Positions 2,307-29,848 are shown, numbered from the stretch's first letter. The stretch: DNA of 64,000 nt from an uncultured euryarchaeote (GCA_963981035.1 CAXCCF010000004.1:1891-65890), one strand, 5' to 3'. Notes: generated by a model from the letters alone, not told the origin. A program made the numbers and translations.

Positions 2307-3053
2307 ATGGCCTGCGATAGAATGCAATGGGGTGCGGAAACATGGCAATATGCTGATTTGTATATGCCAGATGATGAATCCCCATTCCAAAAGGCAGGGA
2401 ATGTCCCTTGTGTGATGTTAATTCATGGTGGTTTTTGGAAGGAAAAATTCACCTCTGAATTAATGAAACCAATTGCTGAAGACCTCGCGGAGGCTGGAAT
2501 TGCAGCTTGGAATATTGAATTCAAGCGTTGGAAAGAGGGTGATGAGGGAGTTTGGATGGATACACTTTCTGATATTATGCGAGCATGGGGTCAACTTGCA
2601 TTATTGCCAAATATTGATGTTCAAAGAACGATGATTATGGGACATTCTTCGGGCGGCCACTTGGCCTTGTTATTGGCTGCTAAAGCCGAACGTAAGCCAT
2701 GGTTAACAATTGCTCAAGCACCAATCACCGACCTGATTGACGCAGATGCTAGCGAATTATCTGACGAAGGCGATGCTGCAAGAAGATGGATCGGCTGTTC
2801 ACCACAACAGAATCCAACTCTATGGCAGCAATTAAACCCAATATCCAATCCTGCTGATTGCCCAATACTACTCGTTCATGGCAAGGAAGATATGGAAGTG
2901 CCAATGAAGCAATCCGAGTCCTATGCAAAAATGATGAAAGATATTGATGATGAAGTAAATGAATTGTGGTTGCCTGGTGATCATTTTTCAATTATTGATG
3001 CCGCAAGTGATGATTGGCTTGTGCAACTTAATTCCATTACAGATTGGCTTTGA
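2307..3053 (+). CDS. Alpha/beta-hydrolase, arylformamidase (AFMID/Bna7)-like esterase
   Basis: HGG-type oxyanion motif IHGGFWKEKF, nucleophile elbow GHSSGGH, later HGKEDMEV and GDHFS (acid/His candidates). The motif pattern matches my memory of alpha/beta-fold kynurenine formamidases and Abhydrolase_3 esterases. Confidence 0.6.
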   Translation: MACDRMQWGAETWQYADLYMPDDESPFQKAGNVPCVMLIHGGFWKEKFTSELMKPIAEDLAEAGIAAWNIEFKRWKEGDEGVWMDTLSDIMRAWGQLALLPNIDVQRTMIMGHSSGGHLALLLAAKAERKPWLTIAQAPITDLIDADASELSDEGDAARRWIGCSPQQNPTLWQQLNPISNPADCPILLVHGKEDMEVPMKQSESYAKMMKDIDDEVNELWLPGDHFSIIDAASDDWLVQLNSITDWL

Positions 3054-3114: not shown

Positions 3115-3930
3115 ATGGACCTCTTAGGTGATGACTACCCTTACTCCAGTACCGCTCTTAGCGGAAAACACGCACTTGTGTGCGGCGCAAGTAAAGGAAT
3201 AGGTGCTGCTACTGCAAAATTTTTGGCAAAGGCGGGCGCGAGTGTTACTGTCTGTGCACGTAATACTGAGGCTTTGGACAAATTGTGTACGGAACTTTCG
3301 TCATTGGGTAATGGCTCACATTCATCTCTTACACTCGACCTTGAAAATACTGAAGCAATAAAACCAGCCCTAGATTCTCTTATTTCCGATAAAGGTGTCA
3401 TTCACATCCTAATCAATAATGCAGCCGGACCAAAAGGCGGGCCACTTCTTGGAGTTGAATTGTCTGATTTAGAAGGACCTTTCAAGCGTCACCTACATGC
3501 TGCACATACGATGGTTCAGTCAGTAGTTCCGGGAATGGAATCACAAGGATATGGGCGTATCATTCAAATTATTTCTACCTCTGTTAAGGAACCTATTCCG
3601 AACCTCGGATTGTCAAATACTCTAAGAGGTGCAATGGCTTCATGGTCCAAAACTCTGTCAAGAGAATTGCCTGCTTGCATTACAATTAACAATGTCCTAC
3701 CTGGTTTTACCGACACTGAAAGATTGGGTTCATTAGCCGCATCAATCAATGAAAAAACTGGAAAGAGCGTTGATGATATTCATCACAATTGGATGGTTCA
3801 AGTACCGATTGGTCGTTTGATAAACCCACTTGAAACAGCATCTGCTATTGCTTTCCTTACACTACCTGCATCTGGGGGAATACGTGGTGTTTCACTTGCA
3901 GTCGATGGTGGAAGATTGCGCTCAATCTGA
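3115..3930 (+). CDS. Short-chain dehydrogenase/reductase (SDR) family protein, atypical active site
   Basis: Rossmann motif VCGASKGIGAA, NNAAG, PGFTDT. The usual Tyr-x3-Lys is replaced by SNTLR (3613-3627). Confidence 0.75.
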   Translation: MDLLGDDYPYSSTALSGKHALVCGASKGIGAATAKFLAKAGASVTVCARNTEALDKLCTELSSLGNGSHSSLTLDLENTEAIKPALDSLISDKGVIHILINNAAGPKGGPLLGVELSDLEGPFKRHLHAAHTMVQSVVPGMESQGYGRIIQIISTSVKEPIPNLGLSNTLRGAMASWSKTLSRELPACITINNVLPGFTDTERLGSLAASINEKTGKSVDDIHHNWMVQVPIGRLINPLETASAIAFLTLPASGGIRGVSLAVDGGRLRSI

Positions 3931-3969: not shown

Positions 3970-4812
3970 ATGCAAAGTTCAGTAAGTCCTGAAAGGGCTA
4001 AGATGATCCTAGAGATGCTGACTTCAGGTGGTGCAATGAGTGATATTAACACTCCATTGGCTCTACGATTAATTCCTCTTGCGATAGAACTTGACGACAT
4101 GGAGTTGGCTGAGAGATTACTTGACCATGCGGCTAATGTTGCAGAAAATGAGATAGAATCGGGTTGGACGAAATTTGAAACTCTAAAGCATATCAATGCT
4201 GGAATTGATACTTTCAATCAATTAGCTGTTGAATCTGAGCAATTAAGTGAAGGTGAACGATTAGCAGCAGCAGTTCTTCATCATGTTTCATTATTGCAAC
4301 TTGCTGCAGATAACCTAGATGATGCTAAACTTAGCGCTTCAAGAGCACTTCGAATTAGAGAAGAAATTGAAGATTCAAGTGGAATTGTATACGGCATTGC
4401 AGTTTTAGAAGCAATTGCAAAGAAGCAAAACGATATTGATACTGCAATTGCCCTAGGAACTAGAAGAGTTGAAATCTTGATGCGAGATAATGATGAAGAT
4501 GGTCAGGTTGAAGCAATGTCTGACTTGGCTCATAGCCAAGCAACAGTGGGCCATTTTGATTCAGCCCGAGACCTTTACACTGAATCTTTGGAAATCGCAA
4601 AAAGGTTGGAAGATTTATCGGGACAATTAGTTGCATATTGGGGACTAGCAGACCTTTGTGAAATTAATGAAGACTACGAATCTGCAATGATACATCTCTC
4701 TGATTGCTTACATGCATTCCTTGAACAAAACCTTCCTGCTCCAACTCAAGTACGAATTAGAATAAATGCATTAGCAGATATTCAAGATAATCCAACTAAG
4801 AATAACGAATAA
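3970..4812 (+). CDS. Hypothetical all-alpha, TPR-like repeat protein
   Basis: Repeated ~40-aa Leu/Ala/Asp/Glu-rich helical units (ARDLYTESLEIAKRLED, YESAMIHLSDCL). AGGAGGGG Shine-Dalgarno-like site just upstream of the ATG. No specific family recognised. Confidence 0.45.
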   Translation: MQSSVSPERAKMILEMLTSGGAMSDINTPLALRLIPLAIELDDMELAERLLDHAANVAENEIESGWTKFETLKHINAGIDTFNQLAVESEQLSEGERLAAAVLHHVSLLQLAADNLDDAKLSASRALRIREEIEDSSGIVYGIAVLEAIAKKQNDIDTAIALGTRRVEILMRDNDEDGQVEAMSDLAHSQATVGHFDSARDLYTESLEIAKRLEDLSGQLVAYWGLADLCEINEDYESAMIHLSDCLHAFLEQNLPAPTQVRIRINALADIQDNPTKNNE

Positions 4813-4815: not shown

Positions 4816-6258
4816 TCAATGTTTGACACAAACATTGGTCATCTCGGAAAAGAATGAGAGTGACCAACGGCCACCTTCCCTGCCAACTCCAGAGTTCTTT
4901 ACTCCACCAAATGGTGTCCGTAAATCTCTATGCAACCATGTGTTAACCCAAACGATTCCACTTTCAACCCTCTTGGCCAATTCTTTTCCTCTTTCAGCAT
5001 CTTCAGTCCAAATAGAACCTGCCAGACCATATTCGGTGCAATTGGCCATCTCTATCGCTTCATCATCAGTAGAAAAGGAATGGAGTGTGACAACAGGGCC
5101 AAAAATTTCTTCGGTAGAAGTCCTTGAAAGATGTTCTAATCCTCCTATTACAGTTGGCCGGATGAATGCACCTGCTGGATTTGGACCAACTTGTCCAGTC
5201 ATTGCTCGGCTCCCTCCACTGAGTATTTCTCCACCTTCTTCAATTGCTAAATCGATATATGATTCAATTTTTTGTAAGTGTTCCATAGAAATTACTGAAC
5301 CCATTTGTGTAGATTCGTCGCTTGGGTCCCCTACTATCATTGCATCGACTTGCTCAACAAATCTCTTGCAGAATTCGTCATATTTTGAGTGATGAATTAG
5401 TATTCTTGAACCACACAGGCAAACTTGTCCAGAGTTGGTAAATGCAGCTCTTACAGCACCTGGAACAACAGTGTCTAAATCTGCATCATCTAGGATTATC
5501 GTAGCATTTTTCCCTCCCAATTCCAGTGATAATTTCTTGAATAATGGTGCTGCTGTTCTAGCAACAATACGCCCTGTCGAAGTACCTCCTGTAAATGAAA
5601 TCCCACTGATATGAGGGTTCTCAAGAATGGCTTGACCGACTTCTGGCCCCAAACCATGAACAAGATTGAATACACCTTCTGGGAGGTTTATTCTCTGCAT
5701 GGTTTTGGCCAACAAATCTGCGCTGAGTGGTGTGATTTCGGAAGGTTTTGCAATAATGCAATTACCCATTAGCAATGCTGGTGCCACCTTCCACGTCAAG
5801 AGGTAAAGTGGTAGATTCCATGGAGTGATTAGCCCTACGATTCCAAGCGGTGATGTGTGAACAAAGTTAGTAGCATCAGACATCTCAAAGGTGAGTGGTT
5901 CTTGACCTCTAGCGAATTTTGCAAAGAAACGGAAATTGCTAATTGAACGAGTTGCGTCAACTGAACGGGCTAAAGAAATCGGTTTTCCCGTATCAAGCGA
6001 CTCTATCTGAGCGATTTCTTCCTTTATTTCCTCTAATGCATCTGCTATTTTATCCAACCAATCTGCTCTTTGTAACATGGTTAATGCAGCCCATTTCGGT
6101 AATGCCTGATTGGCAGCCAATACCGCAGCATCAACATCTGATATCGAGGCTCTTGGAATTTTTGCGATGAGTTCACCATTTGCTGGATTTGTATCATCCA
6201 TCATTCGCCCTTCAATTGGTGGCGTGAATGTTCCATCAATGAAATTGCTAATTATCAT
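4816..6258 (-). CDS. Aldehyde dehydrogenase, 2-hydroxy/2-aminomuconate-semialdehyde dehydrogenase (ALDH8)-like
   Basis: ALDH motifs ELGGKN and QVCLCGSR (catalytic Cys). LARSVDATRSISNFRFFA matches the DIPRxxxNFRFFA hallmark of the HMSD/AMSDH/ALDH8A1 clade as I remember it. Track start 6264 is TTG; ATG at 6258 has GGAGG about 8 nt upstream. Confidence 0.8.
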   Translation of the reverse strand: MIISNFIDGTFTPPIEGRMMDDTNPANGELIAKIPRASISDVDAAVLAANQALPKWAALTMLQRADWLDKIADALEEIKEEIAQIESLDTGKPISLARSVDATRSISNFRFFAKFARGQEPLTFEMSDATNFVHTSPLGIVGLITPWNLPLYLLTWKVAPALLMGNCIIAKPSEITPLSADLLAKTMQRINLPEGVFNLVHGLGPEVGQAILENPHISGISFTGGTSTGRIVARTAAPLFKKLSLELGGKNATIILDDADLDTVVPGAVRAAFTNSGQVCLCGSRILIHHSKYDEFCKRFVEQVDAMIVGDPSDESTQMGSVISMEHLQKIESYIDLAIEEGGEILSGGSRAMTGQVGPNPAGAFIRPTVIGGLEHLSRTSTEEIFGPVVTLHSFSTDDEAIEMANCTEYGLAGSIWTEDAERGKELAKRVESGIVWVNTWLHRDLRTPFGGVKNSGVGREGGRWSLSFFSEMTNVCVKH

Positions 6259-6260
6259 TT

Positions 6261-7376
6261 TCAAACCTCCACATCATATAGCCAGCGGTCACTATCTGGA
6301 TCCCATTCATCCCATGTTGGAAGTATGCTTAATTGTTGCAAATATTTTTCTGGCACAATACCTGGAACTACGAATGCCTTTTGTCGATTCAGTGGATATG
6401 GATTTCTTAAATCAATTCCAAGTACGCCTAAGACTGCTCTAGCAATATACCAAGTTGCCTGCGAGTTCCAGCCGTGAGCAATCTTGACGACAATGCCTAG
6501 ACCCTTTGGATAATCTGGATGTTCAATCGCTAAACCGAGCAAACCATCTGCGCCTTCCTTGGCGATTACCTTTCCCTCACCAGCTTTCAAGACTGTTGAA
6601 TCTAATCGATTGAATCCTCCAACCAAATCTGGATGTTTTATCATCGCTTCCCATATCCAATCTTTGTCTTTATCTCGAACAAGTCCTGCGTAAATTTGTG
6701 CTAATTCGGCGACAGTATTGGAGACAGTAGGTAGTCCGCAGCCATCTTTTGCAATTCGTAATGGCTTCCAATCCTGACCTAGATATTTCCTTAATTCTGT
6801 CATATATGCCTCAAATACTTCGTGTCCTGGCAAAGTATATCCTGCACGATTCCATCCTTTTTTCCTACAACCATACAATATTGCAGAATGTTCACCAGAA
6901 CAGGTGTGGAACCAGCGACGTGGTCTGCGCACTTGTCGCCCGAACTGAATTAACGGTACATCTAATGGAGTTAGCATCAATGGCCATTCAGATTCGTTTA
7001 GCAATGACTGTGCTGCAGCAACATGCTCTGTATCCCCATTGTGAGAAGCGACTGAAATCGCCTTCTGTTCCCAAGTACAATCTTCTAATTCTTCTGTGAA
7101 GGCTTTGAGCATAAATGGCTTCATCATAGAACGGCCATAACACAGAACATTTCCACCAAATGAATGAATGACTTCATCGCCATGTGCCCAAGCAACAGCT
7201 CCGTGAATTGTAGTTTCAGAGACACCATTTCTTCTGTAATCAACTAGTGGCTCCCACGCCACTTCACGACCGGTTGGAATGCCCTCAATTGATTCACCGA
7301 GTGGAGAGGATGGAAACATTGCAGACCCTGGGTTACCGGGTTTTACTGCTGAATGTTTGTCATGATTAATCTCCAT
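6261..7376 (-). CDS. Asparaginase_2 (Rhizobium etli AnsA-type, PF06089-like) family amidohydrolase
   Basis: HTCSGEHSAIL, KDGCGLP and KEGADGLLG motifs in family order. Track start 7385 is GTG; ATG at 7376 is preceded by GGAG. The stop overlaps the start region of the ALDH gene. Confidence 0.6.
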   Translation of the reverse strand: MEINHDKHSAVKPGNPGSAMFPSSPLGESIEGIPTGREVAWEPLVDYRRNGVSETTIHGAVAWAHGDEVIHSFGGNVLCYGRSMMKPFMLKAFTEELEDCTWEQKAISVASHNGDTEHVAAAQSLLNESEWPLMLTPLDVPLIQFGRQVRRPRRWFHTCSGEHSAILYGCRKKGWNRAGYTLPGHEVFEAYMTELRKYLGQDWKPLRIAKDGCGLPTVSNTVAELAQIYAGLVRDKDKDWIWEAMIKHPDLVGGFNRLDSTVLKAGEGKVIAKEGADGLLGLAIEHPDYPKGLGIVVKIAHGWNSQATWYIARAVLGVLGIDLRNPYPLNRQKAFVVPGIVPEKYLQQLSILPTWDEWDPDSDRWLYDVEV

Positions 7377-7381
7377 TATGT

Positions 7382-8638
7382 TCACTCCAAATATTCATTG
7401 ATTAAAGGTACAACTTGCTCCATATATGCAGTCATATTACGGCATACTCTGTCACTATCGTGATTAAAGAAATCAAACCATGCCATGATTCTATCTTGTG
7501 GATGGAAACGCTCAACTATTTGTTTGGCAATATCCTGTGGATTTCCAATTAGAGCATTATTTGATGCATTGGCTACTTTTGCAGGATCAATTGTTCCCTC
7601 CAATGCATTCCAATATGCGCCAAGTGCCACTTTTGCTTCATTTTGTGCCGCTTGAGTTTGTTGCTCAGCAGTAAGTCCCTGCTCTGCGTTGATGAAAACA
7701 AATGAGGTTCTCGGCATGTCACTTCGCTTCCATTGACCTCCATCTTTATGGTATAATCTAGACATCTTTTCATGTGTTGCATCAATGATTTCAGGCTTAG
7801 TAATTGATAGGTTAAACACCTTTACAGGAAGAATGGTATTGACAAATTGTTGTGCTTTTGGGTCATGTGTTCCTGCAATCAATTGCAATAATTGACGGCG
7901 AAAGTTTTGCGGAATAATTTTGATATCCTCAAACACATATCGTTTAGGAATTTCAATCTCTTGTGGAATAGTCTCCAATCCTTCAAACTCAACTGCTGCA
8001 TCTTGTACTGCCTTCCAATCTTCATCACTACGGAAATTATCTCTAGTCAATATGGTCTTGTAGGTTTGTGTTGAATTAATTACATCGCCCCTTAGTAATC
8101 TCAAGAAAATATCACTGGCTTCCATGAAAATTTGTCCTCTTAATGCTGGCCATGCCGCTTCCTCAATTGAATTTCGAGGAACGATTCCATATGGTTTTGC
8201 CATGAATTCAAAGCGACCTGCTGCGAACCCAACGTGTAATTTCCTCTTTTCATTAGCATCCATTCCGTGCAAATTTAGAGTATTTGCAATTCTTTCGGCT
8301 TGGGCAATTGGTCCACCTGAAGCAAGTATTGAAAGAACTGCACTACCAATTTCAATATTTTTTGTTCTTCGCAATGAATCCAATGCTAACTGTGGAAAAT
8401 CGGTACATAGTCCAACTTCACCTTGCCAGTGTGGAACGACAGGTTTGATGTTGCTTTTTTGTATTTCAGTAGATAAATGAGCTTGGGCTAACCAACCAAC
8501 TCCAAAGCCCAATTGGTCAGCACATTGCAATTGTTGGAAGTAATTTGCAAACATTTCTTGCTCGCTTGGAATATGTCCTTCGCTATTGGGAGTTTGACTA
8601 ATTGAGAAGAAAATATCGTGCTCCATACTCGGTCCCAT
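7382..8638 (-). CDS. Luciferase-like (LLM class) flavin-dependent oxidoreductase/monooxygenase
   Basis: The N-terminal pattern ...FFSISQ...ADQLGFGVGWLAQAHLS resembles the LLM TIM-barrel start. ~415 aa. First gene of a tightly packed three-gene minus-strand operon. An alternative ATG lies at 8626. Confidence 0.5.
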   Translation of the reverse strand: MGPSMEHDIFFSISQTPNSEGHIPSEQEMFANYFQQLQCADQLGFGVGWLAQAHLSTEIQKSNIKPVVPHWQGEVGLCTDFPQLALDSLRRTKNIEIGSAVLSILASGGPIAQAERIANTLNLHGMDANEKRKLHVGFAAGRFEFMAKPYGIVPRNSIEEAAWPALRGQIFMEASDIFLRLLRGDVINSTQTYKTILTRDNFRSDEDWKAVQDAAVEFEGLETIPQEIEIPKRYVFEDIKIIPQNFRRQLLQLIAGTHDPKAQQFVNTILPVKVFNLSITKPEIIDATHEKMSRLYHKDGGQWKRSDMPRTSFVFINAEQGLTAEQQTQAAQNEAKVALGAYWNALEGTIDPAKVANASNNALIGNPQDIAKQIVERFHPQDRIMAWFDFFNHDSDRVCRNMTAYMEQVVPLINEYLE

Positions 8639-9562: not shown

Positions 9563-10054
9563 TCACAGAAAAACATAGGCGAGAATTCCTCCTGCCATTG
9601 AACCAATTTCAATTCCAATTACGTGCCACAGTCCGTAACGGAATGATGGCAATTCATATTTCCACCATATACTGTTTATCCAAATCCAAACCAATACTGA
9701 AAGATAGCCACCGCAAAGTAATGGACCTACTTGAGTAAACCATATCAGTGTATAGACAAATCCAAGAGCACCTAATCCCATGGCGTATTCCTTCCAATCA
9801 CCTTTCTTATCCGGCAATAAGAATTTGTACATCAAAGGTGAGAATACCAAGGCCAAAATAATAGCCCCTTGAACCGGAGAAGGGAAGCCGTAGGGTAATT
9901 TTGGTAAAATAATCGTTTCCCAAAAGACACCGAATAATACACCAATGAGCATAGGCGATATTGCATGGCGCAAAGTGTCAGGAAGCCAATCCTCACTGGA
10001 ATTCTTTTCAGCTTCAACAGCAATAGAAGCCACTTCTATCTCAGGTTCAGCCAT
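9563..10054 (-). CDS. Hypothetical integral membrane protein (about 4 TM helices)
   Basis: Acidic N-terminus followed by four hydrophobic, Trp-rich segments. No family recognised. Confidence 0.5.
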   Translation of the reverse strand: MAEPEIEVASIAVEAEKNSSEDWLPDTLRHAISPMLIGVLFGVFWETIILPKLPYGFPSPVQGAIILALVFSPLMYKFLLPDKKGDWKEYAMGLGALGFVYTLIWFTQVGPLLCGGYLSVLVWIWINSIWWKYELPSFRYGLWHVIGIEIGSMAGGILAYVFL

Positions 10055-10158
10055 ATTGTGGGCGAGGTGCGATTTGTCCTTGAGTCTTCGGGTTTTCAGC
10101 GTTAGAAATCAAAGCATTCGCCGAATGCGATAAAGACCCTTGCCCTTTGCATAGTCAC

Positions 10159-11061
10159 ATGGCGAAGGGCAAAATTGTCGCAGGATGCATAGCACCACAC
10201 CCGCCGCATCTTGTTTATGCTGAAAATCCAGACCAAAATGAACCTACATCTGAAGGGGGATGGGAACAATTACGTTGGGGTTATGAAAGACTTCGCGAAT
10301 CTATTTCAGCGATTGAACATGATGTAATAGTAATCCTTTCACCCCATTGGCAAACATATGTCGGAACCCATTTTTTAGGGCTGGAAAACTTCCAAAGTTT
10401 GAGCGTAGACCCTGTATTCCCTAACCTCTTTAGGTATCATTATGACCTAAATGTTGATGTGAAATTAGCAAAACAAATCCACGATAAGGCCGAAAAATCA
10501 GGACTATCTGTAAAAATGATGGAAAATCCTGATTTCAGAGTTGATTATGGAACCATTACTACTGGCCATTTATTCAATCCAAAATGGGACAAGCCGCTTG
10601 TTGTTATTTCTTCAAACCGTTCAACTGATTATTATTCTCCAGAAGTGATGCAAGAGATGATGATTGAACTTGGAAGAATCACTAGAGAAACTATTGAGGA
10701 AAGTGGCAAGAAGGCAATATTGCTGGCGAGTAATTCGTTATCTCATCGCCACTTTACCACCGAAGCAGAAATTCCCGAAGACATGAGCAAAGAGCATATC
10801 ACCAGTCATGCAATGCATCTTTGGGACATGAGAATTATCGATTATATTCGTAGTGGCCAAACGCAAAGAATCCTAGATGAAATGCCCGAATTTATTGAAC
10901 AAGCGATTGCGGAAAGTGATGGCGGCGGTTTGTCGTGGCTGATTTCGGCATTAGATACACCGGAATACCCTGCCATATTGCATGGATATGGGACGATTAT
11001 TGGAACTGGTAATGCCGTCGTTGAATGGCCTTGTTACAAGCATGAGGGGGAATCACAATGA
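10159..11061 (+). CDS. Class III extradiol ring-cleavage dioxygenase, LigB family, catalytic-type subunit (AmnB-like)
   Basis: His-containing motifs IAPHPPH, LSPHW, VDYGT, SNSLSHRH in LigB-family order. Track start 10147 is TTG; ATG at 10159. Confidence 0.7.
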   Translation: MAKGKIVAGCIAPHPPHLVYAENPDQNEPTSEGGWEQLRWGYERLRESISAIEHDVIVILSPHWQTYVGTHFLGLENFQSLSVDPVFPNLFRYHYDLNVDVKLAKQIHDKAEKSGLSVKMMENPDFRVDYGTITTGHLFNPKWDKPLVVISSNRSTDYYSPEVMQEMMIELGRITRETIEESGKKAILLASNSLSHRHFTTEAEIPEDMSKEHITSHAMHLWDMRIIDYIRSGQTQRILDEMPEFIEQAIAESDGGGLSWLISALDTPEYPAILHGYGTIIGTGNAVVEWPCYKHEGESQ

Positions 11062-12491
11062 GTGAAGGAGAGATTATTGGTTCGTATATTGTTCCTGTTC
11101 ATCCTCATACCTACTTAGTTCCAGAACAAAACCCTGGTTGGACTAATCTGAGGGCTGCATTCGATGAAGCGGCCCTTCGTATCAAAAACAGTGAAGCAGA
11201 CTTGTTAATAATTTACTCAACTACTTGGCCGAGTATAATCGGGCATCAAATACAAGCCGACCCAAATCCTGAATGGGTAATGGTTGACCATGATTTCCAT
11301 GACCTCGGCTCTATTCCATATTCTTTCAAGATTGATGCCGAATTTGCTAATGCTTGGAATGAAGCAAATCATCAGCGAGGACTGAAAAGTCGCACAGTAA
11401 ACTACTATGGATTTCCAATAGATGTTGGCTCTGTTGTTGCCCTAAAACTATTGAATCCAGATAATGCAATTCCTGCGGTCATCGTATCATCAAACGTTTA
11501 TGCAAATCGTTCTGAAACATCAGTGCTTGCAAAAGCATGTCTTGATGTTGTTCGTAGTACTGGCCGTAAGGCAATTGCAATTACTGCTATGTCACTTTCT
11601 AACCGAATGTTCACCGAAAATATTGCACCTGAAGATGACAAAATTCACTCATTGAAAGATGATGAATGGAATAGTAAAATTCTCGAATTGGTTGAAATGG
11701 GTCGCCTTGAGGATGTTGGACAATTATCACGAACCATTCAAGAACAAATCCGAGTTCGAAAAGTGGTCGCATTCAAACCTATGTGGTGGCTTTCTGCAAT
11801 GAATGACAACAGAAATGATCTGACTGGCGAAGTGTTGGCATATGAGGCAATTCATGGCGCTGGGGCTGCTGTAATACATTTGGACCCAACTTCTTGCGGA
11901 ACTGGCGACAAAGAATACGATGAAGATGATGTGGAATATTTCCATGGTGACCGCGGTGTTCTAGAATCAAGCGATTTAGAAACAACGGATATGGATGATT
12001 CATTAGAAGAAATTGATGATGAGTTAATTGTTGAAGATAATGGACCAGACTTATGGGAACCAACCACTGCTGATGGTTCTGTAAATACTGAATCAGCACC
12101 TAAGCCAGTGGGAGCATACCCTCATGCGAGAAGAGTTGGAGATTTGTTATATCTTTCAGGTGTAGGCCCTCGTCAAGCCTTAGACAATTCAATTCCAGGC
12201 GGTCCAATACATGATGAAGATGGGGAGCCGCTCGATTATGATATCAAAGCTCAAACACATGCAGTAATCGATAATATTTCCCGTATCTTAGAAGAGGCTG
12301 GTTCATCACTTGACCAAGTTATTGATGTCACTACATTCTTAGTTGATATGAAAAGAGATTTCCAAGGCTACAATGAAGTGTGGGCCGAAACATTAGGTCA
12401 AATTGGCCCTACTAGAACGACTTTAGCAATTCGAGCATTACCTACTCCTATTGCTGTTGAAATGAAAGTTATTGCACAATTATCTGAATGA
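11058..12491 (+). CDS. Fusion protein: LigB-family non-catalytic-type (AmnA-like) domain + acidic linker + RidA/YjgF/UK114 domain
   Basis: The ATGA overlap with the upstream gene suggests translational coupling. The N-terminal ~290 aa are paralogous to the preceding ORF but with degenerate motifs (SLSNRM instead of SLSHRH). Residues ~347-477 (12096-12488) read PKPVGAYPHARRVGDLLYLSGVG...TTFLVDM...RTTLAIRALP, a RidA-family pattern. Confidence 0.7.
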   Translation: MSEGEIIGSYIVPVHPHTYLVPEQNPGWTNLRAAFDEAALRIKNSEADLLIIYSTTWPSIIGHQIQADPNPEWVMVDHDFHDLGSIPYSFKIDAEFANAWNEANHQRGLKSRTVNYYGFPIDVGSVVALKLLNPDNAIPAVIVSSNVYANRSETSVLAKACLDVVRSTGRKAIAITAMSLSNRMFTENIAPEDDKIHSLKDDEWNSKILELVEMGRLEDVGQLSRTIQEQIRVRKVVAFKPMWWLSAMNDNRNDLTGEVLAYEAIHGAGAAVIHLDPTSCGTGDKEYDEDDVEYFHGDRGVLESSDLETTDMDDSLEEIDDELIVEDNGPDLWEPTTADGSVNTESAPKPVGAYPHARRVGDLLYLSGVGPRQALDNSIPGGPIHDEDGEPLDYDIKAQTHAVIDNISRILEEAGSSLDQVIDVTTFLVDMKRDFQGYNEVWAETLGQIGPTRTTLAIRALPTPIAVEMKVIAQLSE

Positions 12492-12501
12492 TAATCGTTG
12501 T

Positions 12502-15138
12502 TCAAGAGACTCTGGACCAAGTCCCATCGCTGGAAACATCCCAATATTGTACTTCTTCACTGACATCAACATACCACCCAGTGGCACCTTGTTCTGTACC
12601 TGGTGCTGCTTGCATGACACCTATTTCTGCAGCCGCTGTTGCTAATTTTGTTCTCATTTCTGCATCGATCCATTCTCCATTGGATTGTTCTTCGGATTTT
12701 GGTTCCTCAGTAGCGTCATCATCCTGCGTTGTTGTAGTCTCGATTTTATCTTCATCATAATCAAATGCATCTTCAACCCAATCCTCTTCAGAAACTTGGT
12801 TTGCCTTACGTATTAGAACAATTAAAGTAACCAAAATCAATGATAGAAGGAATGCTCCTAGTCCCATTGCAGTATTGGTTGAACCAACTGCACCACCAAG
12901 TAATACAGATTCTACATCAAAGAAATTTTTAGCCATTAATCCGTTCCACATTATAGTACAATATCTATCGTTTCCAGCAGTTGTAATTTCTACTTCCCAA
13001 GTATCTCCAGTCACATGAGATGTTGGTCCTGCTGAGCATGAAACAGTAGTATTCGCTTCGTCTATTGTCACTTCATTACCAAAAGAATCTATTCCATTTG
13101 CCCTATACAAGAATACATCTCCCTGTGCTAATGAATCACTATCAAGTTCTGCAATTATACGAATTGCATTACCCGGCAATATCGTCAATTCAATATCACG
13201 AGATGCATCTCCTTCTTCTATCGTCAGCACATATTCTCCCGCTGTTTTTCCGGTGAAGGACCAATATCCGACACCTGCAGAGGAGGTTTCCAAAGTGCCA
13301 ATCTCCGTATCCAAATCACTGGATAAGTCATTACTAGGCCCGGTATTTCCATGAACATCAACCACTTGTACAAACATGTCAATACTTTCACCGGCTATTG
13401 CGACAAATCCTGCATCCTTGTCAGAAATCAAATGTTGTGCAGAACCTGCAACTACTGTAAATCTAATCGTTGCAAAAATACCATCAGCATTTGCTCTAAT
13501 TTCATGACCACCAACAACTGATGAAGAAAAATAACCTTGTGATAATATCATCTCTAAGGTAGAGTCAACATCATCTATTGTCCAATTGACATCAACCCCC
13601 AATATTTCGTTTCCGTAGGCATCTGCAAATTGTGGCTCCAATAAAAATGGGGTATCTGCCGGGAGTATCATCGAGCCTCCATTTAGGTGAATGAATGCAA
13701 GTTTACCATGAGAAACTTCTATTTGATTTGCGACATTATATCTTGAATCTGTATTATTATCAAACCAAGTACCCTCAAATCTCCAAATTCCGACTGATTG
13801 TGGATTAAATACAGCGTGATCTGATTCAATCTGAGTCAATGAAGCATTTCCTGAAGATAATGTGATTTCTGCATTTACTGGCCAATAGTTTCCTGAACGG
13901 TCAACTGCTTCAAAGACGACTACACATTGATTTCCCGCAGTTAAATGAGATTTGCTAAATGAAAGAATTGCATCAATTGCATTTCCATGGACGACATTTA
14001 CTTCTAAACTTGAAAGTACGTCTTCATCAATCACTTGTATTGTGACTTGCCCTGTAGAACTTGGAGTCCACCAAATCTTTTCATCTTCATAGTGAAGTCC
14101 TCCACTTGTAATTGACCAATTTGATAATGGTGGAATTACATAACCAGAATAACCATTGTTATCTGTTCTAATAGTTGCGACTTCATACGCAGTTCCAGCA
14201 GAATATGATTCCAAATCTTCCATTATTACCAATTGGGAAATTAATGCATTTGCAGGGACTACAAATATGCTGCCGTTACCAATAATACCACCTGCTGTGA
14301 TTGAGATATTCCATAGACCCGGCACTGATGCCTGATACAGACCTTGGCTGTTAACCGAACCATTTTCTGCATACCATGCTACTGAGCCAGCGGCTGAACG
14401 ATTCATTGCAAAACCGTTAGCATCAACTAATTCAGGCTCCAATAATACTGATTGCCCTGAACGTACTTGAATTCCTTCAGGGAAAATAAATTCAAAAGGA
14501 GAACCGGGGTTTACTTCAACGGCTTCATTGGTTTCCATCTGATTCAATCGTGCTTTAATATTCGCAGTTCCAATATCATCTGCAATCCATTGAGGACTTC
14601 CTTGGCCAATATATACTCCATCAATAGTCCATACTACTTCGCTGCTAATCCGCTCATTTCCTCTTGAATCAACTTCGTTAGCCACTAGTGTATAGGGTTG
14701 CAATACTTGTGGTGATAGTGTCGTAATACGCAATGTGTTAGCCTGACCAGGTGTGACCGTTATGTTATATGTCGCATTTAATGTCAAATGATCTGCTCGG
14801 ATTTCAATTAATCCTGCTGTCCAAGGAAAGAATAATCCATTGCTATCAATGGACCCATTGCTACAACTCCAAACGATTTCACCTTCTGCGATATTGTTTA
14901 CTGAATCATATAATATTGCAGTGAAATCTAACACTTCATCAGCAGACATCGAATATTGTGGAGATGTCACTTCAATTCTTGTTGGAGTTCCTGCTTGCAT
15001 TATTGACTCATTATCTAAGGTCGATACTGTTACTGGCTGAAAGGCTTGAGTCAACAAAATAGATAGGATGAAGAAAAATATTAATTTTCCATTTACTACA
15101 TTATCTCGCATAAAACCACCTAAGATGGAAATGAACAT
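12502..15138 (-). CDS. Secreted, C-terminally membrane-anchored surface protein with tandem Ig-like (Big_2-like) domains (878 aa)
   Basis: N-terminal signal/anchor KLIFFFILSILLTQAFQ. Repeated W..xNGS(I/V)xSxGL(F/Y)...G...I and VDxxGN strands. C-terminal TM LGAFLLSLILVTLIVLI plus an acidic, Trp-containing tail. ATG 15138-15136 shares one base with the TGA of the upstream giant gene. Confidence 0.75.
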   Translation of the reverse strand: MFISILGGFMRDNVVNGKLIFFFILSILLTQAFQPVTVSTLDNESIMQAGTPTRIEVTSPQYSMSADEVLDFTAILYDSVNNIAEGEIVWSCSNGSIDSNGLFFPWTAGLIEIRADHLTLNATYNITVTPGQANTLRITTLSPQVLQPYTLVANEVDSRGNERISSEVVWTIDGVYIGQGSPQWIADDIGTANIKARLNQMETNEAVEVNPGSPFEFIFPEGIQVRSGQSVLLEPELVDANGFAMNRSAAGSVAWYAENGSVNSQGLYQASVPGLWNISITAGGIIGNGSIFVVPANALISQLVIMEDLESYSAGTAYEVATIRTDNNGYSGYVIPPLSNWSITSGGLHYEDEKIWWTPSSTGQVTIQVIDEDVLSSLEVNVVHGNAIDAILSFSKSHLTAGNQCVVVFEAVDRSGNYWPVNAEITLSSGNASLTQIESDHAVFNPQSVGIWRFEGTWFDNNTDSRYNVANQIEVSHGKLAFIHLNGGSMILPADTPFLLEPQFADAYGNEILGVDVNWTIDDVDSTLEMILSQGYFSSSVVGGHEIRANADGIFATIRFTVVAGSAQHLISDKDAGFVAIAGESIDMFVQVVDVHGNTGPSNDLSSDLDTEIGTLETSSAGVGYWSFTGKTAGEYVLTIEEGDASRDIELTILPGNAIRIIAELDSDSLAQGDVFLYRANGIDSFGNEVTIDEANTTVSCSAGPTSHVTGDTWEVEITTAGNDRYCTIMWNGLMAKNFFDVESVLLGGAVGSTNTAMGLGAFLLSLILVTLIVLIRKANQVSEEDWVEDAFDYDEDKIETTTTQDDDATEEPKSEEQSNGEWIDAEMRTKLATAAAEIGVMQAAPGTEQGATGWYVDVSEEVQYWDVSSDGTWSRVS

Positions 15139-18100
15139 CAATCAGTCCATTCTTCCCAATCATCTTCACCAGGCAGACGGTACCACCAAGTTCCGGAATC
15201 ATCTTCCCACCACTCAGTTCCTTCGTCATCTACGCGATAACTTTCATCTTTGGTAAAATCAGTTTCCTCTGGTTCAATTTCAGGTACTGGCTTAGGAGTA
15301 GGAGCTGGGCCGGCTGGACCGGTAGGACCGGCTCCACCACCGCGAGTAGGTTTTCTTCTCTCAGTGATTGGCTCATCATCGTCATCATCATCCTCATCCT
15401 CATCCTCATCCCACTCGTCATCATTTCCGCTCAATACCATCTTCAATACGAATAGTAGTACAATCGCAATTGCTGCTGCCAAAAATGCTCCGATATAGTA
15501 TAAGATACCGCCTGCTTCAAAGAATCCTTGAAGTGTTCCAGTGACTGTGAAAGTTCGCTCTTCATTGACTTGTCCTGAATTAACTGTAATAGTTTGAGTT
15601 CCTTCATCAAGAGTTATTATTCTCCAAACGCCATCGCCTTGAGATAGAACTTGCGCTCTACCTGTTGAATCAACAAGTGTGCTTGAAGGCACTGGGATCT
15701 TGTTCCAATATTCATCATATGCAGTTACATTAACCATGAACTCGCCAAGTTGTTCAACTTCTTCAAGAGAAAGTTCAACCTTGAGATGCGCAACAATTCT
15801 CTTTGCACTTACTGCTAATTCAATTTCGTTACTAACGGTTAGTGAACTACTAAATGTCAAAAGATGTGGACCTTCAATTCTTGCCTGGTAGGTATAGATT
15901 CCCTCATCTGTCGTTGAGTTGATATCATGAGCTACTGCATCGTTTTCTTGCCATTCGACATTTTGCGGGAAGGTGTTTCCATCGCTATCAGTTCCAGTAA
16001 TCGCTATTGTAATTTGATATCCAGCTGTTGCAGTATTTGCATCTTCAGAAGCGTGAAGACTTACAGCTTGTCCATGATGTACGATAATGCTTACCGTATC
16101 ACCAATTGGATAGCCTGATTCACTGATATTGAATGCACGAATTGAATAATTACCAACCTTTTCTGCTTGCCAACGACCAATAGTTTGGATGTCATTTGTA
16201 ATATCGGTTTCTTCACCATTTGATTCGTCGGTTAGAATCCATTTAAGAATACTTGAATCAATAGGATTTTGGTCTTCATCCGATAAGTCTGCAGCGAAAT
16301 CAATCCAGTCATCAGCAGTTAAATCATATGCTGCTAATCCTGTATCATCTTCGCTGCTAATTGAACTCAAAACGATATTGGTTAGTTCTCCATGAGAGAC
16401 TGTTGCATTAATTGAGATTTCATGAACCATATTGCCATCATCATATGTTGCTGTAATTGTATATGGTGTTGTAGATGCATGATATGGAACGAAAGTGGTT
16501 TGATCACTTTCAATTTGTTCTAATACTCCTTGATCGTTCCAAAGTGCATGAGAAATAGACCAATTCGCAGTGACTGTCCAGCGATTGCCCTTTGCGTCAA
16601 TTGCCTTGACCTTAACCGCTAATGTGTCATCTGCGGTAAGTGGCATCATTTGCCAACTAGAATCTTCAGAGTCAACGATAAGAACGAGAGTATTAATCTC
16701 TCCTTCTGAAACTGTAATTGTCACTTCGGCAGTAATAAATTCATATCTTGCTTCTAATATCTTAGCACCTCTTGTAACTGGGTCCCAAACTGCAGGCGCG
16801 CCAGCACTCAATTGTCCGTCGGCTATCTTTGTCCAATTTTCAATAGGCAAAACAACTGTCATTCTATTTCCACGAACATCTATTCTTGTTGTGTTGATAT
16901 ACACTCGCTCATCAGCAGTAATTGATGTTGAAGAAGTTGCGAGTTCAAGACTCTGCATCTCTCCATGACCTACTGTAATGTTAATTTCAGCGGATGCACC
17001 TGATACCGATGTAAGAGTTAGTGTCCATGTTCCGAGGTGATCTGGGAAATATTGTTCATTGATTTCACTGTAATTGCCATTATTGGTAGTCCAAGACAAC
17101 AAGCCCGCTTCTGTTGAGTTTAGCACATTGCCATATTGGTCGAATAACGTATGCGTGATATCACACCACTCACCAGCAGGAACTACTCCTTCACAACCGG
17201 TTAACTCGAAATGAGATGGAGCACCTGTATCGACTGCAATTTGAACATCCACAGATTGTGTACCCCACGTGACTGTAACGGTTTGAGCACCTGAAGCAAA
17301 TGGATAGAAAATATTTCCATTAACACCGCCCATTGTGCCATTTGAAGCAGAGTATGTGATTAATTCACCAGCAACGATATTACCAAATTGGTCAACTACA
17401 GATGCTGTTATTTCCAACGATTCATCGGATGTAATCTGACCCGTTAACGGAGTGACATCAAGTGTTGTCGGGCTGCCAGGTGTAACGGTTATTGATTCGC
17501 TGGAACAAATTAATCCAAAGCAAGCGGTAATCGTATGAGTTCCAGCATTTCTTGGAGTAAACAATCCGAATGAATCGATGCTACCATCACTAGAACTCCA
17601 AGTCACAGGTGCGATGAGTTGCAATGCTTGGTGATTATATGCTTGATGAGAGAAACTAAAGGTTGTGTCAGCATCTGTCGTAGGAGCTGTTGGTGAGATT
17701 GCAACACTGCTAACATTAGTTGTGTTCAGTTGAATCTTTGGCCTATATGAAGGCGTGGAATATTCACTTGAGTACATGTCAATTGTGAGGTCTCCAGCAT
17801 TTGGAGTTGCAATAAGAACCCATTGATTATCGTTATCAATTAGCATACCATTTACTCCGATATCAAGCCAGAACCAACCTGTTGCAGTGGATGGAAGTGT
17901 CATTGTACTGATTGCAGTAGCATCATATTCTACACCTGCTTGAAGACCAGGGGTACTCCAATTTGTTCCTGGTGTTGATTGATTCCATGATGAAGCAGAT
18001 TGACTCCAACTAGACGATAACATTCTGTGTACTGAAATATCTAGGGTAGATGCGCCACCTGACGCAGACATAGAGTAGATATAGAATCCAAGGCTTGCAG

Positions 18101-21100
18101 AATGAATGTTCTGGAATGGTGCAAATGGAATTTGTGAATTATCCAATCCAATAATGACTCGGCATTTGGCATTTGTGACTGAATCGCAACCTGTACCCAA
18201 ACTGAGATAATCAACATCACCATTATTGATTTCAGGATTTGCTTCACTCAGTGTGCTATCTCTAATATTGGTGTGGCCAAATTGTAGCACTTCGTTTCCA
18301 GTTTGGAAATCATATGTAAAGGTTAGATCTTGGTTATCCGTATGCGATGGGTCACCTATCGCAAACGACCAGCGTGCAGATGAAGGTCCAGGTATTGTTT
18401 GATTTACACCTTGTACCCACCACGAAAATACATCGCCTGCGTCTAAAATATTGTTAAAGCGGAATGTTGTTCCGTTAATGTATGTGCTTTCCCAGGATTT
18501 GTATTTGTATACACCTGTTGCATTTGCAATTGTCACGATATATCCGCTCGCTCCAGTCACAGGATTCCAGGATAATGTAGGAGATGTCTGACTTTGTAGG
18601 ACGACTTCGCTGTCATCGTATAACACACTTCCATCTAATGGGAATACCAAAGATGGCTGTCCAGGAGGAACAATTCCAGCGGTATTATCAACATAATCCA
18701 ATACTAACTGTGGACGACGTGATTCGTTTGCAGTGTAGTCACTTGAGAAGAAACGATGAGTCGTACTTGGTGTTCCAACTACCTTTAGCAATATGGTCAT
18801 AGTTGTATTTCCATTAGCGATATTCGATTGCGCTAGACTTGTCAAGTCAAATTCATGCCAGCCATTAGGTGGCATCAATGTAAGAGTTGTACGAGTTAGT
18901 TCAGATGTTGAACAAGTCGGTGCATTACTCCATGTTGCAGTTGATTCACTGAAAGAAGAACATGCATGAGCTGAAACTGTGGTTGAAGTAGACCCGACAA
19001 CTTGCTGCCTCCAAAGTTTGAGTACCATTGAAGTTGGTGTCATCGCTGCAGGCCATGGAATATCACCCAAATAGAATTCAAGTAATATTTGGCTTTCACC
19101 AGTTCCTGAAGATGTTGTACCCAAATCGAGTACTGTGCTCGCTCCTTGATTGCTTGTTACTGTAGATTCTAGTTCCACATCCGGTACAATTGGCACTAAT
19201 CCACTTTCAGAGAAGATAGATCCGCGAGACAATATTACTGTATGATTGCCATCACCATCATCGTATCCAATATTTCCAGGAGTTCTGAAACTGTGGACAT
19301 CAGACCATTCACCAACACGATTGTCTTGGTATGCTCTTACGCGCCAATAAGTCCATTCATCATTATCTGAATTATTGGTGACTGACATAGTATTGGTAGT
19401 GGAATTGAATGTAAGATTATGTGCAGGTAATTCTAACATGTCTATGCATTCGGAATATACCATGCGTGGAGAGTCTGAATGACAAGCGATCCAACTAGTT
19501 TCATTGTTTTGGTGCTCTGTCCAATTAGCATCAAATTCGGTTAGTCCCGAAGGTCTAGGTGTGCTAGTATTCCATAGTGTAGTACCATCTGCTGGTAATA
19601 ACCCAGTTGCTGCTGAAGGAATCCATGGAGCTTGTTCAACATAGGTGAAATTAATTCTTGGTCTTTGGGAAATCATTGATGCTTCACTACTGTGTAACGC
19701 ATATACCCCCATTGTATTCGTGCCAAATGATTCTCCTTGAATTACAAGAGAGATGGAACTTTGCCCATTGTAAATTGCTGCTTGAATCGCTGCGGTCAAG
19801 TTCCACACAACTGTGCCGCCAGATGAATTAATCCACTGTCCTTCAGTAAATGGAAGGTCACTATCACCGCTGTGATGTGCTCCTTGAACTAACCAATTTG
19901 TTGAATTGGATGGAGAATTCCATGTCGATGATTCATTCCAATTAGTATTCATTACTGATACTGAAGTAAATACTGAACCAGAACCCATACTGGATACAAC
20001 AGACATTTCCAATGTAGCATTTTGAACCTCATATACACTTGGTAACGGTATTACTCCTAGGTCAAATGAAATTAGTGAATTTGCGTAATGAGTACTAGAT
20101 AAAGGACTTCTTCCAACGTACATTGTCGTTGAATTACCAAAATTAGTAAATCTATTTCCACTGTCAACATATACATCTTCAGTCACAGTTGGATATGATA
20201 ATGGATCTACATATGCACCTTCTTGTATTGTGACCCAAGCAGTGGTAGAATCTACTTCTCCACCCATTTCTTCAGGAATATGAAATACTGTTGAGGCACT
20301 TCGAGGCCCTAGCATTTCATCAACAACCGGTTGTACCATCCATCGCACTTCGCGGGTGTGATCTATGTCCATACCCGGAGTGAATGTTAGATTTGTCAAA
20401 TCAAATAATTGTGGCTGTGTTCTTGAATCATAAGTGGTTAAACCTTCCATTTCTTCATTCGCATCAGCCATGATGAATAATCTCCAATCATCAATATTTG
20501 CTGCATTGGCATGAGTCCAAGACAAAATTGGCTTGTATTCAGGAATTGGTGCATGAGAAGTTAGATTCCAAGTTATTCCATTATGAGATGGACCAACATT
20601 GCTTCCCGCTACAGTTGGTATTGTTGCACTTCCATTTGACCAAGTTAAATTTAACCAAGGCTTATCGGATGAAGTGCTATCTGTTGAGATAAATTGTACA
20701 AGGTCTTGAGTAACAGTTCCTGAGGTATAAATCATCAGTGATAATTCGCTGGAACCTGCGGCTTGTGCTGCTTGAATTGCTTCAGTGACATCCCAAGTCA
20801 TCCAATCTGCTGACACACTGTCTTGGATGTCAACATTATTTCCAATATCAGTTCCTATATGCCTTCCACCGAGTGCAGACCAATTGTTAACTCCATCATA
20901 GGTAGTATCGTTTGCATCGGAATTCCAGTTTTGCAGTACTGGCCTAATTGCTATTGGCTCGTCAATGGCTGAACCAAATATTGAGTAAAGGTTCAAATCA
21001 GCATTGGTAATTCTTGCATTACTCGGAGTAGGCAATTGGTTGAGTGGTATTTTTATCAATCCTGCAGATTGATAACCATTTGGCATTTCTCCTACATTGA

Positions 21101-24242: not shown

Positions 24243-24256
24243 GGGACTCGTCCCTC

Positions 24257-24263
24257 TCACCTC
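24257..24263 (-). promoter_or_regulatory. Shine-Dalgarno-like GAGGTGA upstream of the 3,034-aa gene
   Basis: GAGGTGA lies about 14 nt upstream of ATG 24242. The same heptamer precedes the 4,520-aa gene. Confidence 0.35.
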
Positions 24264-26553: not shown

Positions 26554-26652
26554 ATCTCTTGCCAAAAGTCGGCAGTGAATAAAGGCTACAATGGACGACT
26601 CATCTAAGTTTAGCCGTATCATTCAAAGGGGGAGTGCTTCACGACGGGTTAA

Positions 26653-29845: not shown

Positions 29846-29848
29846 GAA

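Follow-up and report, generated by a model that had tools for sequence, protein, structure and literature searches.

A predicted aminophenol dioxygenase subunit fused to a 2-aminomuconate deaminase-type domain in Marine Group II archaea

The closest described relatives of the system reported here are the 2-aminophenol 1,6-dioxygenases (APDs) AmnBA and CnbCaCb from Pseudomonas sp. AP-3 and Comamonas sp. CNB-1 (8ihg and 3vsg-3vsj) and the ARO-microcompartment enzyme of Micromonospora rosaria (7txy). In a 64,000-nucleotide stretch of DNA from an uncultured euryarchaeote (GCA_963981035.1, CAXCCF010000004.1:1891-65890; hereafter the window), we identified a gene pair that resembles these enzymes in consisting of two adjacent, coupled paralogues of the LigB family, the beta subunit with the residues of a His/His/Glu iron site together with a Tyr and a His, and the alpha subunit without them. 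Unlike in AmnBA and CnbCaCb, a long acidic tether joins the alpha subunit in the window to a C-terminal deaminase-type domain, the host is a planktonic marine archaeon of Marine Group II, the genes run in the order beta, alpha::deaminase, and they lie amid housekeeping genes rather than in a catabolic island that also encodes the lower pathway.

The fused domain has its own counterparts in the 2-aminomuconate deaminases AmnE, AmnD and NbaF and their fungal and Burkholderia relatives (6izh), with which it has in common the Rid fold, the Lp2 loop insertion, the equivalents of RidA residues Arg105 and Glu120, a clade and an association with semialdehyde dehydrogenases. Those deaminases are free-standing proteins of ~140 residues, a homohexamer in the case of AmnE, whereas the domain in the window forms the C-terminus of a 477-residue protein. 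As in the amnBACDFEHG, cnb and nbz operons, the dioxygenase, the semialdehyde dehydrogenase and the deaminase are encoded together; unlike those operons, the window cluster includes a luciferase-like flavin monooxygenase (LLM), an asparaginase-II-like hydrolase and a short-chain dehydrogenase/reductase (SDR) instead of 4-oxalocrotonate decarboxylase, hydratase, aldolase and acetaldehyde dehydrogenase. The kynurenine clusters of Burkholderia and Cupriavidus resemble an operon found in relatives of the window cluster, with TDO first, KynB last, and a semialdehyde dehydrogenase and a Rid-type deaminase between them, but in the relatives KMO, kynureninase, HAAO and ACMSD are replaced by a LigB-type aminophenol dioxygenase, the LLM and the asparaginase-like hydrolase. 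Finally, the ARO microcompartment of Actinobacteria prevents picolinate formation by keeping its dioxygenase near the enzymes that consume the unstable product (PMC10470539); in place of encapsulation in a protein shell, the window encodes a covalent tether.

As of 2023 the aminophenol pathway had been shown only in nitrobenzene and chlorobenzene degraders (PMC10470539), so an aminophenol module in Marine Group II is unexpected. In our literature searches neither the fusion nor this gene set was described, and no paper reported aminophenol dioxygenases from Marine Group II or an archaeal pathway of this kind, in agreement with an earlier note on this DNA, made from the sequence alone, whose author was not aware of such a fusion; nor does the main text of a survey of the Rid family mention a fusion to LigB (PMC4433059). 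The parts belong to known families; the system is set apart by the fusion of its alpha subunit to a deaminase, by its occurrence in an archaeon, by the absence of lower-pathway genes from the cluster and by its three additional enzymes.

The gene pair and its fused Rid domain

The first open reading frame (ORF1; 10147/10159-11061, + strand) encodes 300 residues when read from the ATG at 10159, which agrees with the N-terminus of characterized AmnB, and the second (ORF2; 11058-12491, +) encodes 477 residues. Their stop and start codons overlap in an ATGA at 11058-11061 (+), as seen directly in the sequence and crossed by one RNA contig, an arrangement indicative of translational coupling. Pfam detects LigB in ORF1 (2e-20), and LigB (residues 22-272) followed by Ribonuc_L-PSP (residues 345-474) in ORF2. 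The latter is thus composed of three parts, an iron-less alpha domain, a 67-residue acidic linker and a Rid domain, and an AlphaFold2 model built on a 32-sequence alignment has both domains confidently folded, with a mean predicted local distance difference test score (pLDDT) of 82.4.

The fusion is real and no artefact of assembly. The region 10100-12550 was recovered in contigs of four independent marine metagenome runs (2012-2025) with 1-2 substitutions and zero insertions or deletions; a single 22-kb contig covers all of it, and two contigs of 1,604 bp cover 10735-12338. Seawater metatranscriptome contigs of at least 97% identity span the ORF1/ORF2 junction (11027-11221) and also cover the alpha domain into the linker (11467-12050). 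Among 8,000 candidates tested, 3,327 were homologues of the fusion protein at E ≤ 0.001, both Pfam domains were present in 120 of 120 homologues among the matches listed, and protein databases hold thousands of homologues of 452-514 residues that have both domains. The independent assemblies, the metatranscriptome contigs and the number of homologues together rule out an assembly chimera or a frameshift as the origin of the fusion. Public automatic labels are partly right, with Joint Genome Institute (JGI) entries reading '2-aminomuconate deaminase' or 'enamine deaminase RidA/aromatic ring-opening dioxygenase'.

The best PDB relatives of ORF1 (10159-11061, +) are APD beta subunits, matched over their full length (8ihg_A, 5e-108; 3vsg_B, 1.5e-107; 7txy_B, 1e-92), and the next LigB family, represented by the HpaD-type protein 8iq8, is far weaker at 2e-6. 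Identity to CnbCb and AmnB in a MAFFT alignment is 54-55%. In the Comamonas enzyme CtAPD, His13, His62 and Glu251 form the Fe(II) triad, and Tyr129 and His195 belong to the second sphere (PMC5291488). All five residues are retained in ORF1, as H14, H63 and E252 with Y130 and H196. The assignment of ORF1 as an iron-binding, catalytic beta subunit of the AmnB/CnbCb type is well supported by these comparisons, and ring cleavage of 2-aminophenol is its predicted activity. Neither ORF had a Pfam, NCBIfam or PDB match to the MEMO/AmmeMemoRadiSam family, a placement that the earlier note had named beforehand as contrary to its own.

By sequence, the N-terminal domain of ORF2 (residues 1-277; 11058-11888, +) is closer to alpha subunits of the AmnA/CnbCa type (3vsg_A, 1.7e-39; 7txy_A, 6e-37; 8ihg_B, 6e-35) than to beta subunits (3e-28). 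The same holds by fold, with Foldseek TM-scores (normalized to target) of 0.92-0.93 for the alpha subunits 7txy_A, 3vsg_A and 8ihg_B against 0.80-0.82 for beta subunits. Identity to known alpha subunits is about 30%. The five catalytic positions are replaced (V14, T56, V233, V123 and N182), and ORF2 has in common with CnbCa four alpha-specific deletions of 9, 3, 4 and 4 residues. Because the catalytic residues are replaced, the best matches are alpha subunits and the alpha-specific deletions are present, we assign this domain as the non-catalytic partner. Free-standing alpha subunits have ~270 residues; ORF2, with its linker and Rid domain, has 477.

The linker (ORF2 residues 278-344; 11889-12089, +) comprises 67 residues, 24 of them Asp or Glu and only 2 Lys or Arg, and is mostly disordered, with pLDDT below 50 at residues 283-288 and 297-332. 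In homologues it ranges from 21 to 104 residues and varies in composition outside one conserved motif, KEYDEDDVEYFHGDRGVL (residues 285-302; 11910-11963, +), identified in the alignment of fusions. The core of this motif, K-E-[YF]-D-E, is kept in marine archaeal fusions and in most aligned bacterial ones, including those of soil bacteria, and at least 90% of the sequences in the fusion alignment share E289. The KE[YF]DE motif may be a docking peptide, perhaps for another partner.

The C-terminal Rid domain (ORF2 residues 345-477 plus stop; 12090-12491, +) matches PF01042 at 1.7e-24. Among solved structures it is closest to AmnE of Pseudomonas sp. AP-3 (6izh, 2.8e-26), followed by the generic protein PH0854 (2.6e-21). 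The domain and AmnE both carry an insertion of about 13 (12-13) residues between β3 and α1 that generic RidAs are without; in AmnE this insertion is the Lp2 loop (PMC6742747). The equivalents of RidA Arg105 and Glu120 are R453 and E468, which are invariant in 32 fusion proteins and align to 'PARTT' and 'IEIKV' of AmnE. In a quick maximum-likelihood tree, AmnE falls within a clade (96% SH-aLRT) together with the Rid domains of the window and of other fusions, and with those that are joined to aldehyde dehydrogenases or encoded beside them; three generic RidAs and triple-RidA proteins fall outside it. Placement of the domain in the AmnE/AmnD clade of 2-aminomuconate deaminases, as opposed to generic RidAs, is well supported, and deaminase activity is predicted. 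Known aminophenol dioxygenases are α2β2 tetramers. Rid proteins, in turn, form trimers or hexamers, and the AmnE homohexamer is held by Arg56 (PMC6742747); the fusion would therefore imply a higher-order assembly. Specialized deaminases of this type speed the decay of 2-aminomuconate, whose spontaneous half-life is about 160 min, and are inactive on 2-iminopropanoate, and human RIDA is no substitute for them (bioRxiv 10.64898/2026.06.05.730449).

Much of this architecture had been anticipated. The earlier note had described two ORFs coupled by the ATGA overlap, the second being a dioxygenase-subunit/deaminase fusion, and sequence reading in the one case, and Pfam, independent assemblies, metatranscriptomes and homologues in the other, agree. 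Its assignment to AmnB and AmnA is confirmed by the best PDB matches and by the match to the alpha fold; the catalytic His motifs that it saw in ORF1 are now part of five active-site residues aligned to CtAPD, and the degenerate motifs that it took to mark a non-catalytic alpha subunit recur in the alignment. What it called a very acidic linker of ~60 residues proved to be 67 residues long. The RidA domain that it proposed to be of the 2-aminomuconate deaminase type is upheld by the AmnE match, the insertion and the tree; the Arg105 equivalent, which it had singled out for checking, is present as the invariant R453. The outcome that it had named as contrary, a generic RidA lacking pathway partners, is not what we found, as the domain belongs to the AmnE clade and partners are encoded nearby.

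A semialdehyde dehydrogenase and other conserved neighbours

Upstream of the fusion pair by 4 kb lies a gene for an aldehyde dehydrogenase (ALDH; 4816-6264, - strand) of the 2-aminomuconate/2-hydroxymuconate 6-semialdehyde dehydrogenase type, which would catalyse step 2 of the pathway. Its seven best solved relatives are all 2-aminomuconate 6-semialdehyde dehydrogenases, at 1e-137 to 1e-133 (4u3w, 1.2e-137; 4i1w, 7bzv and 5kj5, about 1e-134). The alignment recovers the two Arg residues that bind the substrate carboxylate ('DATRS' and 'LHRDLR'; presumably Arg120 and Arg464 in the numbering of the Pseudomonas fluorescens enzyme), the catalytic Cys ('GQVCLC') and a Glu ('ELGGKN'). The PDB matches, the best NCBIfam model and these residues agree with the earlier note, which had listed an ALDH8-type semialdehyde dehydrogenase here. 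Genes for the dioxygenase, the semialdehyde dehydrogenase and the deaminase, steps 1-3, are thus all encoded within 8 kb.

The ALDH subfamily is tied to the same Rid clade elsewhere. A 2.9-kb JGI contig with a guanine-plus-cytosine (GC) content of 64% (L087:165-2786) encodes an 873-residue protein in which an ALDH, 53% identical to that of the window, precedes three Rid domains in tandem, which belong to the clade of the window's Rid domain and are 41-50% identical to it; judged by its domains, it is a second, independent fusion within the same predicted pathway. In two further loci, with GC contents of 75% (L088) and 36% (L089), the ALDH adjoins an unfused Rid gene of the AmnE/fusion clade, and L089 also carries an SDR 53% identical to that of the window. 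The fusion and the adjacencies thus amount to two independent kinds of linkage of this ALDH subfamily to the Rid clade.

Overlapping both the ALDH gene and the LLM gene is a gene for an asparaginase_II-family hydrolase (6261-7385, -; PF06089, 1e-46), similar to class 3 asparaginases. It matches the class 3 asparaginase ReAV of Rhizobium etli in the PDB at 3.5e-14, and its SxxK, CSGxH and DGCxLPT motifs align to ReAV, with the Lys of CSGKH being a Glu in the window protein. In related loci it is always accompanied by the LLM and the ALDH. The LLM itself (418 residues; 7382-8638, -) is divergent, without a match in Pfam and NCBIfam searches. Its AlphaFold2 model (pLDDT 89.9; predicted TM-score 0.89) is a luciferase-like TIM barrel, and its Foldseek neighbours (2i7g, 8cbb, 7bip, 1luc and the type II Baeyer-Villiger monooxygenase 4uwm) have 11-16% identity and TM-scores of 0.5-0.77. 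Foldseek points to no specific subfamily, the type II Baeyer-Villiger monooxygenase being present among the matches and not at their top; some sources call homologues 'luciferase/LLM'. The SDR (3115-3930, +; Pfam adh_short) is a further conserved member, and homologues with 40-78% identity open the cluster in four related loci (L081, L094, L149 and L158) and adjoin the ALDH-RidA pair in L089.

To assess conservation of the cluster, we scanned one genome per species and obtained 226 stretches with a relative of the fusion, with synteny counted on the best 80. All but one of these 80, a contig named 'Verrucomicrobiales bacterium' (NZEQ01000011.1), carry the label Poseidoniales, Marine Group II or unclassified archaea. 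Their gene order is alpha/beta hydrolase, SDR, TPR protein, the block of LLM, asparaginase-II-like hydrolase and ALDH, then panB, a membrane protein, amnB and amnA::rid. Depending on the gene, synteny holds in 56-80 of these loci; as limited by contig ends, the ALDH is found in 68 of the 80, the asparaginase-like gene in 66, the LLM in 62 and the SDR in 56. The LLM/asparaginase-like/ALDH block runs in the same direction as amnB and amnA::rid in the other Poseidoniales loci inspected, whereas the window and its five closest relatives (L001-L005) have it inverted. A second marine group (L141, L143, L156 and L160) has the six genes contiguous, with panB downstream and the same flanks of metK, aspS, panB and surface-protein genes; in the window, too, the cluster lies among the housekeeping genes metK, aspS and panB. 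In a more distant locus (L081; GC 49%), where the fusion is 41% identical, SDR, LLM, asparaginase-like hydrolase, ALDH, AmnB and AmnA::Rid form a tight operon, each protein being 40-59% identical to its counterpart in the window. A conserved cluster of SDR, LLM, asparaginase-II-like hydrolase, ALDH, AmnB and AmnA::deaminase thus occurs across Marine Group II (Poseidoniales) and in many bacteria. Of the pathway context given in the earlier note, the ALDH partner stands, and the links to the LLM, the asparaginase-II-like hydrolase and the SDR had been missed.

Three more genes accompany the cluster. A BD-FAE-type alpha/beta hydrolase (2307-3053, +; Pfam BD-FAE, 2.9e-23) opens it in Marine Group II and is a candidate arylformamidase. 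The earlier note had called this gene an AFMID-like formamidase; at E ≤ 0.001 its Pfam, NCBIfam and PDB matches are generic esterases only, with no kynurenine formamidase among them, and we rejected an assignment as AFMID-type kynurenine formamidase. A TPR protein (3970-4812, +; Pfam TPR_12) is encoded between the SDR and the LLM block in 59 of the 80 Marine Group II loci, only those closest to the window. Between panB and amnB, a small membrane protein without a family match (9563-10054, -) occurs in 79 of the 80. De novo clustering of neighbouring ORFs gave mostly spurious high-GC groups, the only real-looking ones being an amino-acid permease, an Eda aldolase and a sigma-factor-like ORF.

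Several related loci have features of their own. The 'Verrucomicrobiales' contig holds a fusion 77% identical to that of the window together with a Marine Group II-like amino-acid permease gene, and is probably an archaeal contig misbinned into a bacterial metagenome-assembled genome (MAG). A 550-residue APC amino-acid permease with a C-terminal EF-hand pair is encoded directly after the fusion in most Marine Group II loci, with L166 (11515-13167) and 83 other loci having it, though not in the genus of the window; it is absent at this place (12491-12502) in the window and in L001-L005. In the window, very large ORFs of 879, 3,040, 4,520, 1,042 and 1,023 residues occupy 12502-24260 (-), 43311-56873 (-) and 57419-63889 (-), the first two abutting the fusion; they are probably surface proteins. 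In two Rhodospirillaceae MAGs (L085:6767-9871 and L086:2107-5211), an ABC permease domain, an AmnA-like LigB domain and a BD-FAE hydrolase domain make up one protein of 1,034 residues, whose gene adjoins amnB/amnA and genes for an ABC transporter of the branched-chain type, under a LysR regulator. In about a dozen soil loci (L096, L099, L116-L118, L120, L126, L127 and L137 among them), amnA::rid is directly preceded by a gene for a KDPG/KHG (Eda) aldolase and in most of them followed by kynB; the flanks retrieved showed no amnB, which would leave the iron-less subunit without a catalytic partner next to it.

A proposed role in tryptophan catabolism

More distant relatives link the module to tryptophan. 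A metagenome scan seeded with distant fusions gave 80 more loci from soil and sea, and in 36 of 85 distant loci the fusion is closely followed by a kynB homologue; that of L083 scores 205.6 bits on TIGR03035 (arylformamidase KynB) against a cut-off of 223. On a 223-kb seawater contig (L149; GC 70%), a single operon encodes TDO, SDR, LLM, asparaginase-like hydrolase, ALDH, AmnB, AmnA::Rid and KynB; its TDO (PF03301, 197 bits) opens eight genes that leave no room for further ones. The operon of L139 likewise opens with TDO. In L084, TDO fragments lie 4 kb away on a noisy, frameshifted contig that lends weak support only. Kynureninase, KMO, the cupin HAAO and ACMSD are encoded in none of the related operons examined, including that of L149, where all eight genes are accounted for. 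From this gene context we infer a role in tryptophan/kynurenine catabolism via a 2-aminophenol-type intermediate, and not in xenobiotic degradation.

Our preferred reading, to which we give a probability of roughly 0.7, is that ORF1 and ORF2 form a two-subunit enzyme of the 2-aminophenol 1,6-dioxygenase type, tethered to a deaminase and acting in that catabolism. The identities of its enzymes (beta subunit, alpha subunit, AmnE-type Rid domain and ALDH) are well supported by homology. The dioxygenase would open the ring of an o-aminophenol to give 2-aminomuconate 6-semialdehyde, which the nearby ALDH would oxidize to 2-aminomuconate; the tethered deaminase would then hydrolyse 2-aminomuconate to 2-oxohex-3-enedioate (4-oxalocrotonate) and ammonia. 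The tether may hold the deaminase where the unstable intermediates arise. In vitro, 2-aminomuconate semialdehyde cyclizes to dead-end picolinate within 10 minutes unless the dehydrogenase is present (PMC10470539).

Several observations weigh against this reading. Steps 1-3 are modelled on the characterized amn pathway, and both the substrate and the order of the steps are inferred. APDs also cleave catechol (PMC10470539), so homology does not fix the ring substrate. Neither the window nor any Marine Group II locus from the scan of genome contigs has a TDO or kynB gene within 10 kb, and the link to tryptophan thus rests on the more distant relatives. The annotated ORFs of the window include no 4-oxalocrotonate decarboxylase, 2-oxopent-4-enoate hydratase, aldolase or acetaldehyde dehydrogenase. 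The L081 and L149 operons are likewise without lower-pathway genes, and ten ORFs at 24442-40667 are housekeeping genes (RFC, GatD-like, carboxyltransferase, formate-THF ligase, Pelota-like and CinA), with no pathway genes among them. The best NCBIfam model for the ALDH, TIGR03216 (2-hydroxymuconic semialdehyde dehydrogenase), is matched at 537 bits, below its cut-off of 693. As for the Rid domain, the tree came from a short search in which the unfused members were chosen as top matches to the query, and AmnE Arg56, which marks the AmnE-type hexamer, aligns to a Glu in ORF2.

The ALDH model also bears on a different order of steps, in which the Rid domain would act on 2-aminomuconate semialdehyde, releasing 2-hydroxymuconate semialdehyde and ammonia ahead of the ALDH, so that the fusion would join steps 1 and 2. 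With the Rid domain acting between the two enzymes, such an order would most simply explain its fusion to the dioxygenase in the window and to the ALDH in L087, and the domain would act on the less stable compound, since the semialdehyde turns to picolinate in minutes (PMC10470539) against about 160 min for 2-aminomuconate. The characterized members of this Rid clade, though, are 2-aminomuconate deaminases, and the loop insertion in common with AmnE, like the conserved Arg and Glu, suggests a substrate of the same class; a fusion, moreover, need not join consecutive steps. Our literature searches found no paper on a Bordetella semialdehyde deaminase. On balance we consider this order unlikely.

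The earlier note had placed the module on an aminophenol or a 3-hydroxyanthranilate route, and the second of these deserves separate treatment. Here the ring substrate would be 3-hydroxyanthranilate or another substituted o-aminophenol, and the LigB-type enzyme would replace the cupin HAAO in the canonical kynurenine pathway. The regiochemistry of cleavage would be identical, TDO and kynB are linked in the relatives, and the ALDH type serves the canonical pathway too. That pathway needs ACMSD ahead of the ALDH step, however, and the eight-gene operon of L149 has no ACMSD, kynureninase or KMO; because these and HAAO are absent from the related operons examined, we do not favour the 3-hydroxyanthranilate route. 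It would also leave the ever-present LLM and asparaginase-like genes without a role, and ORF1 is 54-55% identical to enzymes characterized on 2-aminophenol. We regard it as slightly less probable still than the altered order of steps.

A generic RidA, a housekeeping imine/enamine deaminase fused by chance to a LigB protein of some non-aminophenol function (catechol, DOPA or gallate), is very improbable. Rid proteins are ubiquitous, automatic labels of the kind 'Rid family hydrolase' and 'reactive intermediate/imine deaminase' fit such a protein, and the activity of APDs on catechol would allow it. Yet AmnE is the best solved relative of the domain, which has the AmnE-specific insertion and sits in the AmnE clade with generic RidAs outside; this clade is linked or fused to semialdehyde-dehydrogenase-type ALDHs in unrelated lineages with GC contents from 36% to 75%; and the score of ORF1 on APD beta subunits (5e-108) dwarfs that on the next LigB family (2e-6). 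Least probable of all is a module for degrading pollutants (nitrobenzene, chloronitrobenzene or aniline derivatives) acquired from bacteria: all characterized homologues do come from such degraders (PMC10470539) and an identity of 54-55% between the beta subunits of archaea and proteobacteria is consistent with lateral transfer, but the genes are conserved and syntenic across 226 open-ocean archaeal stretches among metK, aspS and panB, they are transcribed in seawater, nitroreductase and mutase genes are absent, and the relatives are linked to TDO and kynB.

Returning to the preferred reading, a tethered aminophenol dioxygenase in tryptophan catabolism, we tentatively propose a fuller route, which we consider possible but less likely than not. 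The tethered module would be the end of an undescribed, kynureninase-independent aerobic route of tryptophan breakdown, common to Marine Group II and many bacteria. TDO and a formamidase would make kynurenine, and the LLM would carry out a Baeyer-Villiger oxygenation of its aryl ketone to give a beta-aspartyl 2-aminophenyl ester, with a possible rearrangement to N4-(2-hydroxyphenyl)asparagine. The asparaginase-II-like hydrolase would then free L-aspartate and 2-aminophenol, and AmnB/AmnA::deaminase together with the ALDH would convert 2-aminophenol to 2-oxohex-3-enedioate and ammonia. We propose a Baeyer-Villiger step on the basis of gene content, because the LLM and the asparaginase-like hydrolase are constant companions of the module, TDO and KynB are linked to it, and the textbook enzymes are absent.

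Implications for Marine Group II and the Rid family

Few heterotrophs of the surface ocean are as abundant as the archaea of Marine Group II, of which we know none in culture. For the enzymes involved, the fusion offers a simple, testable case of how an unstable intermediate may be controlled by tethering. For the organisms, the gene context leads to the hypothesis that these archaea, and many soil and marine bacteria, may degrade tryptophan without kynureninase, KMO, HAAO or ACMSD, by a pathway that would be new, should biochemistry bear it out. If true, it would add that pathway to the maps used for metagenome annotation and would assign functions to three unstudied subfamilies, those of the LLM, the asparaginase-II-like hydrolase and the SDR.

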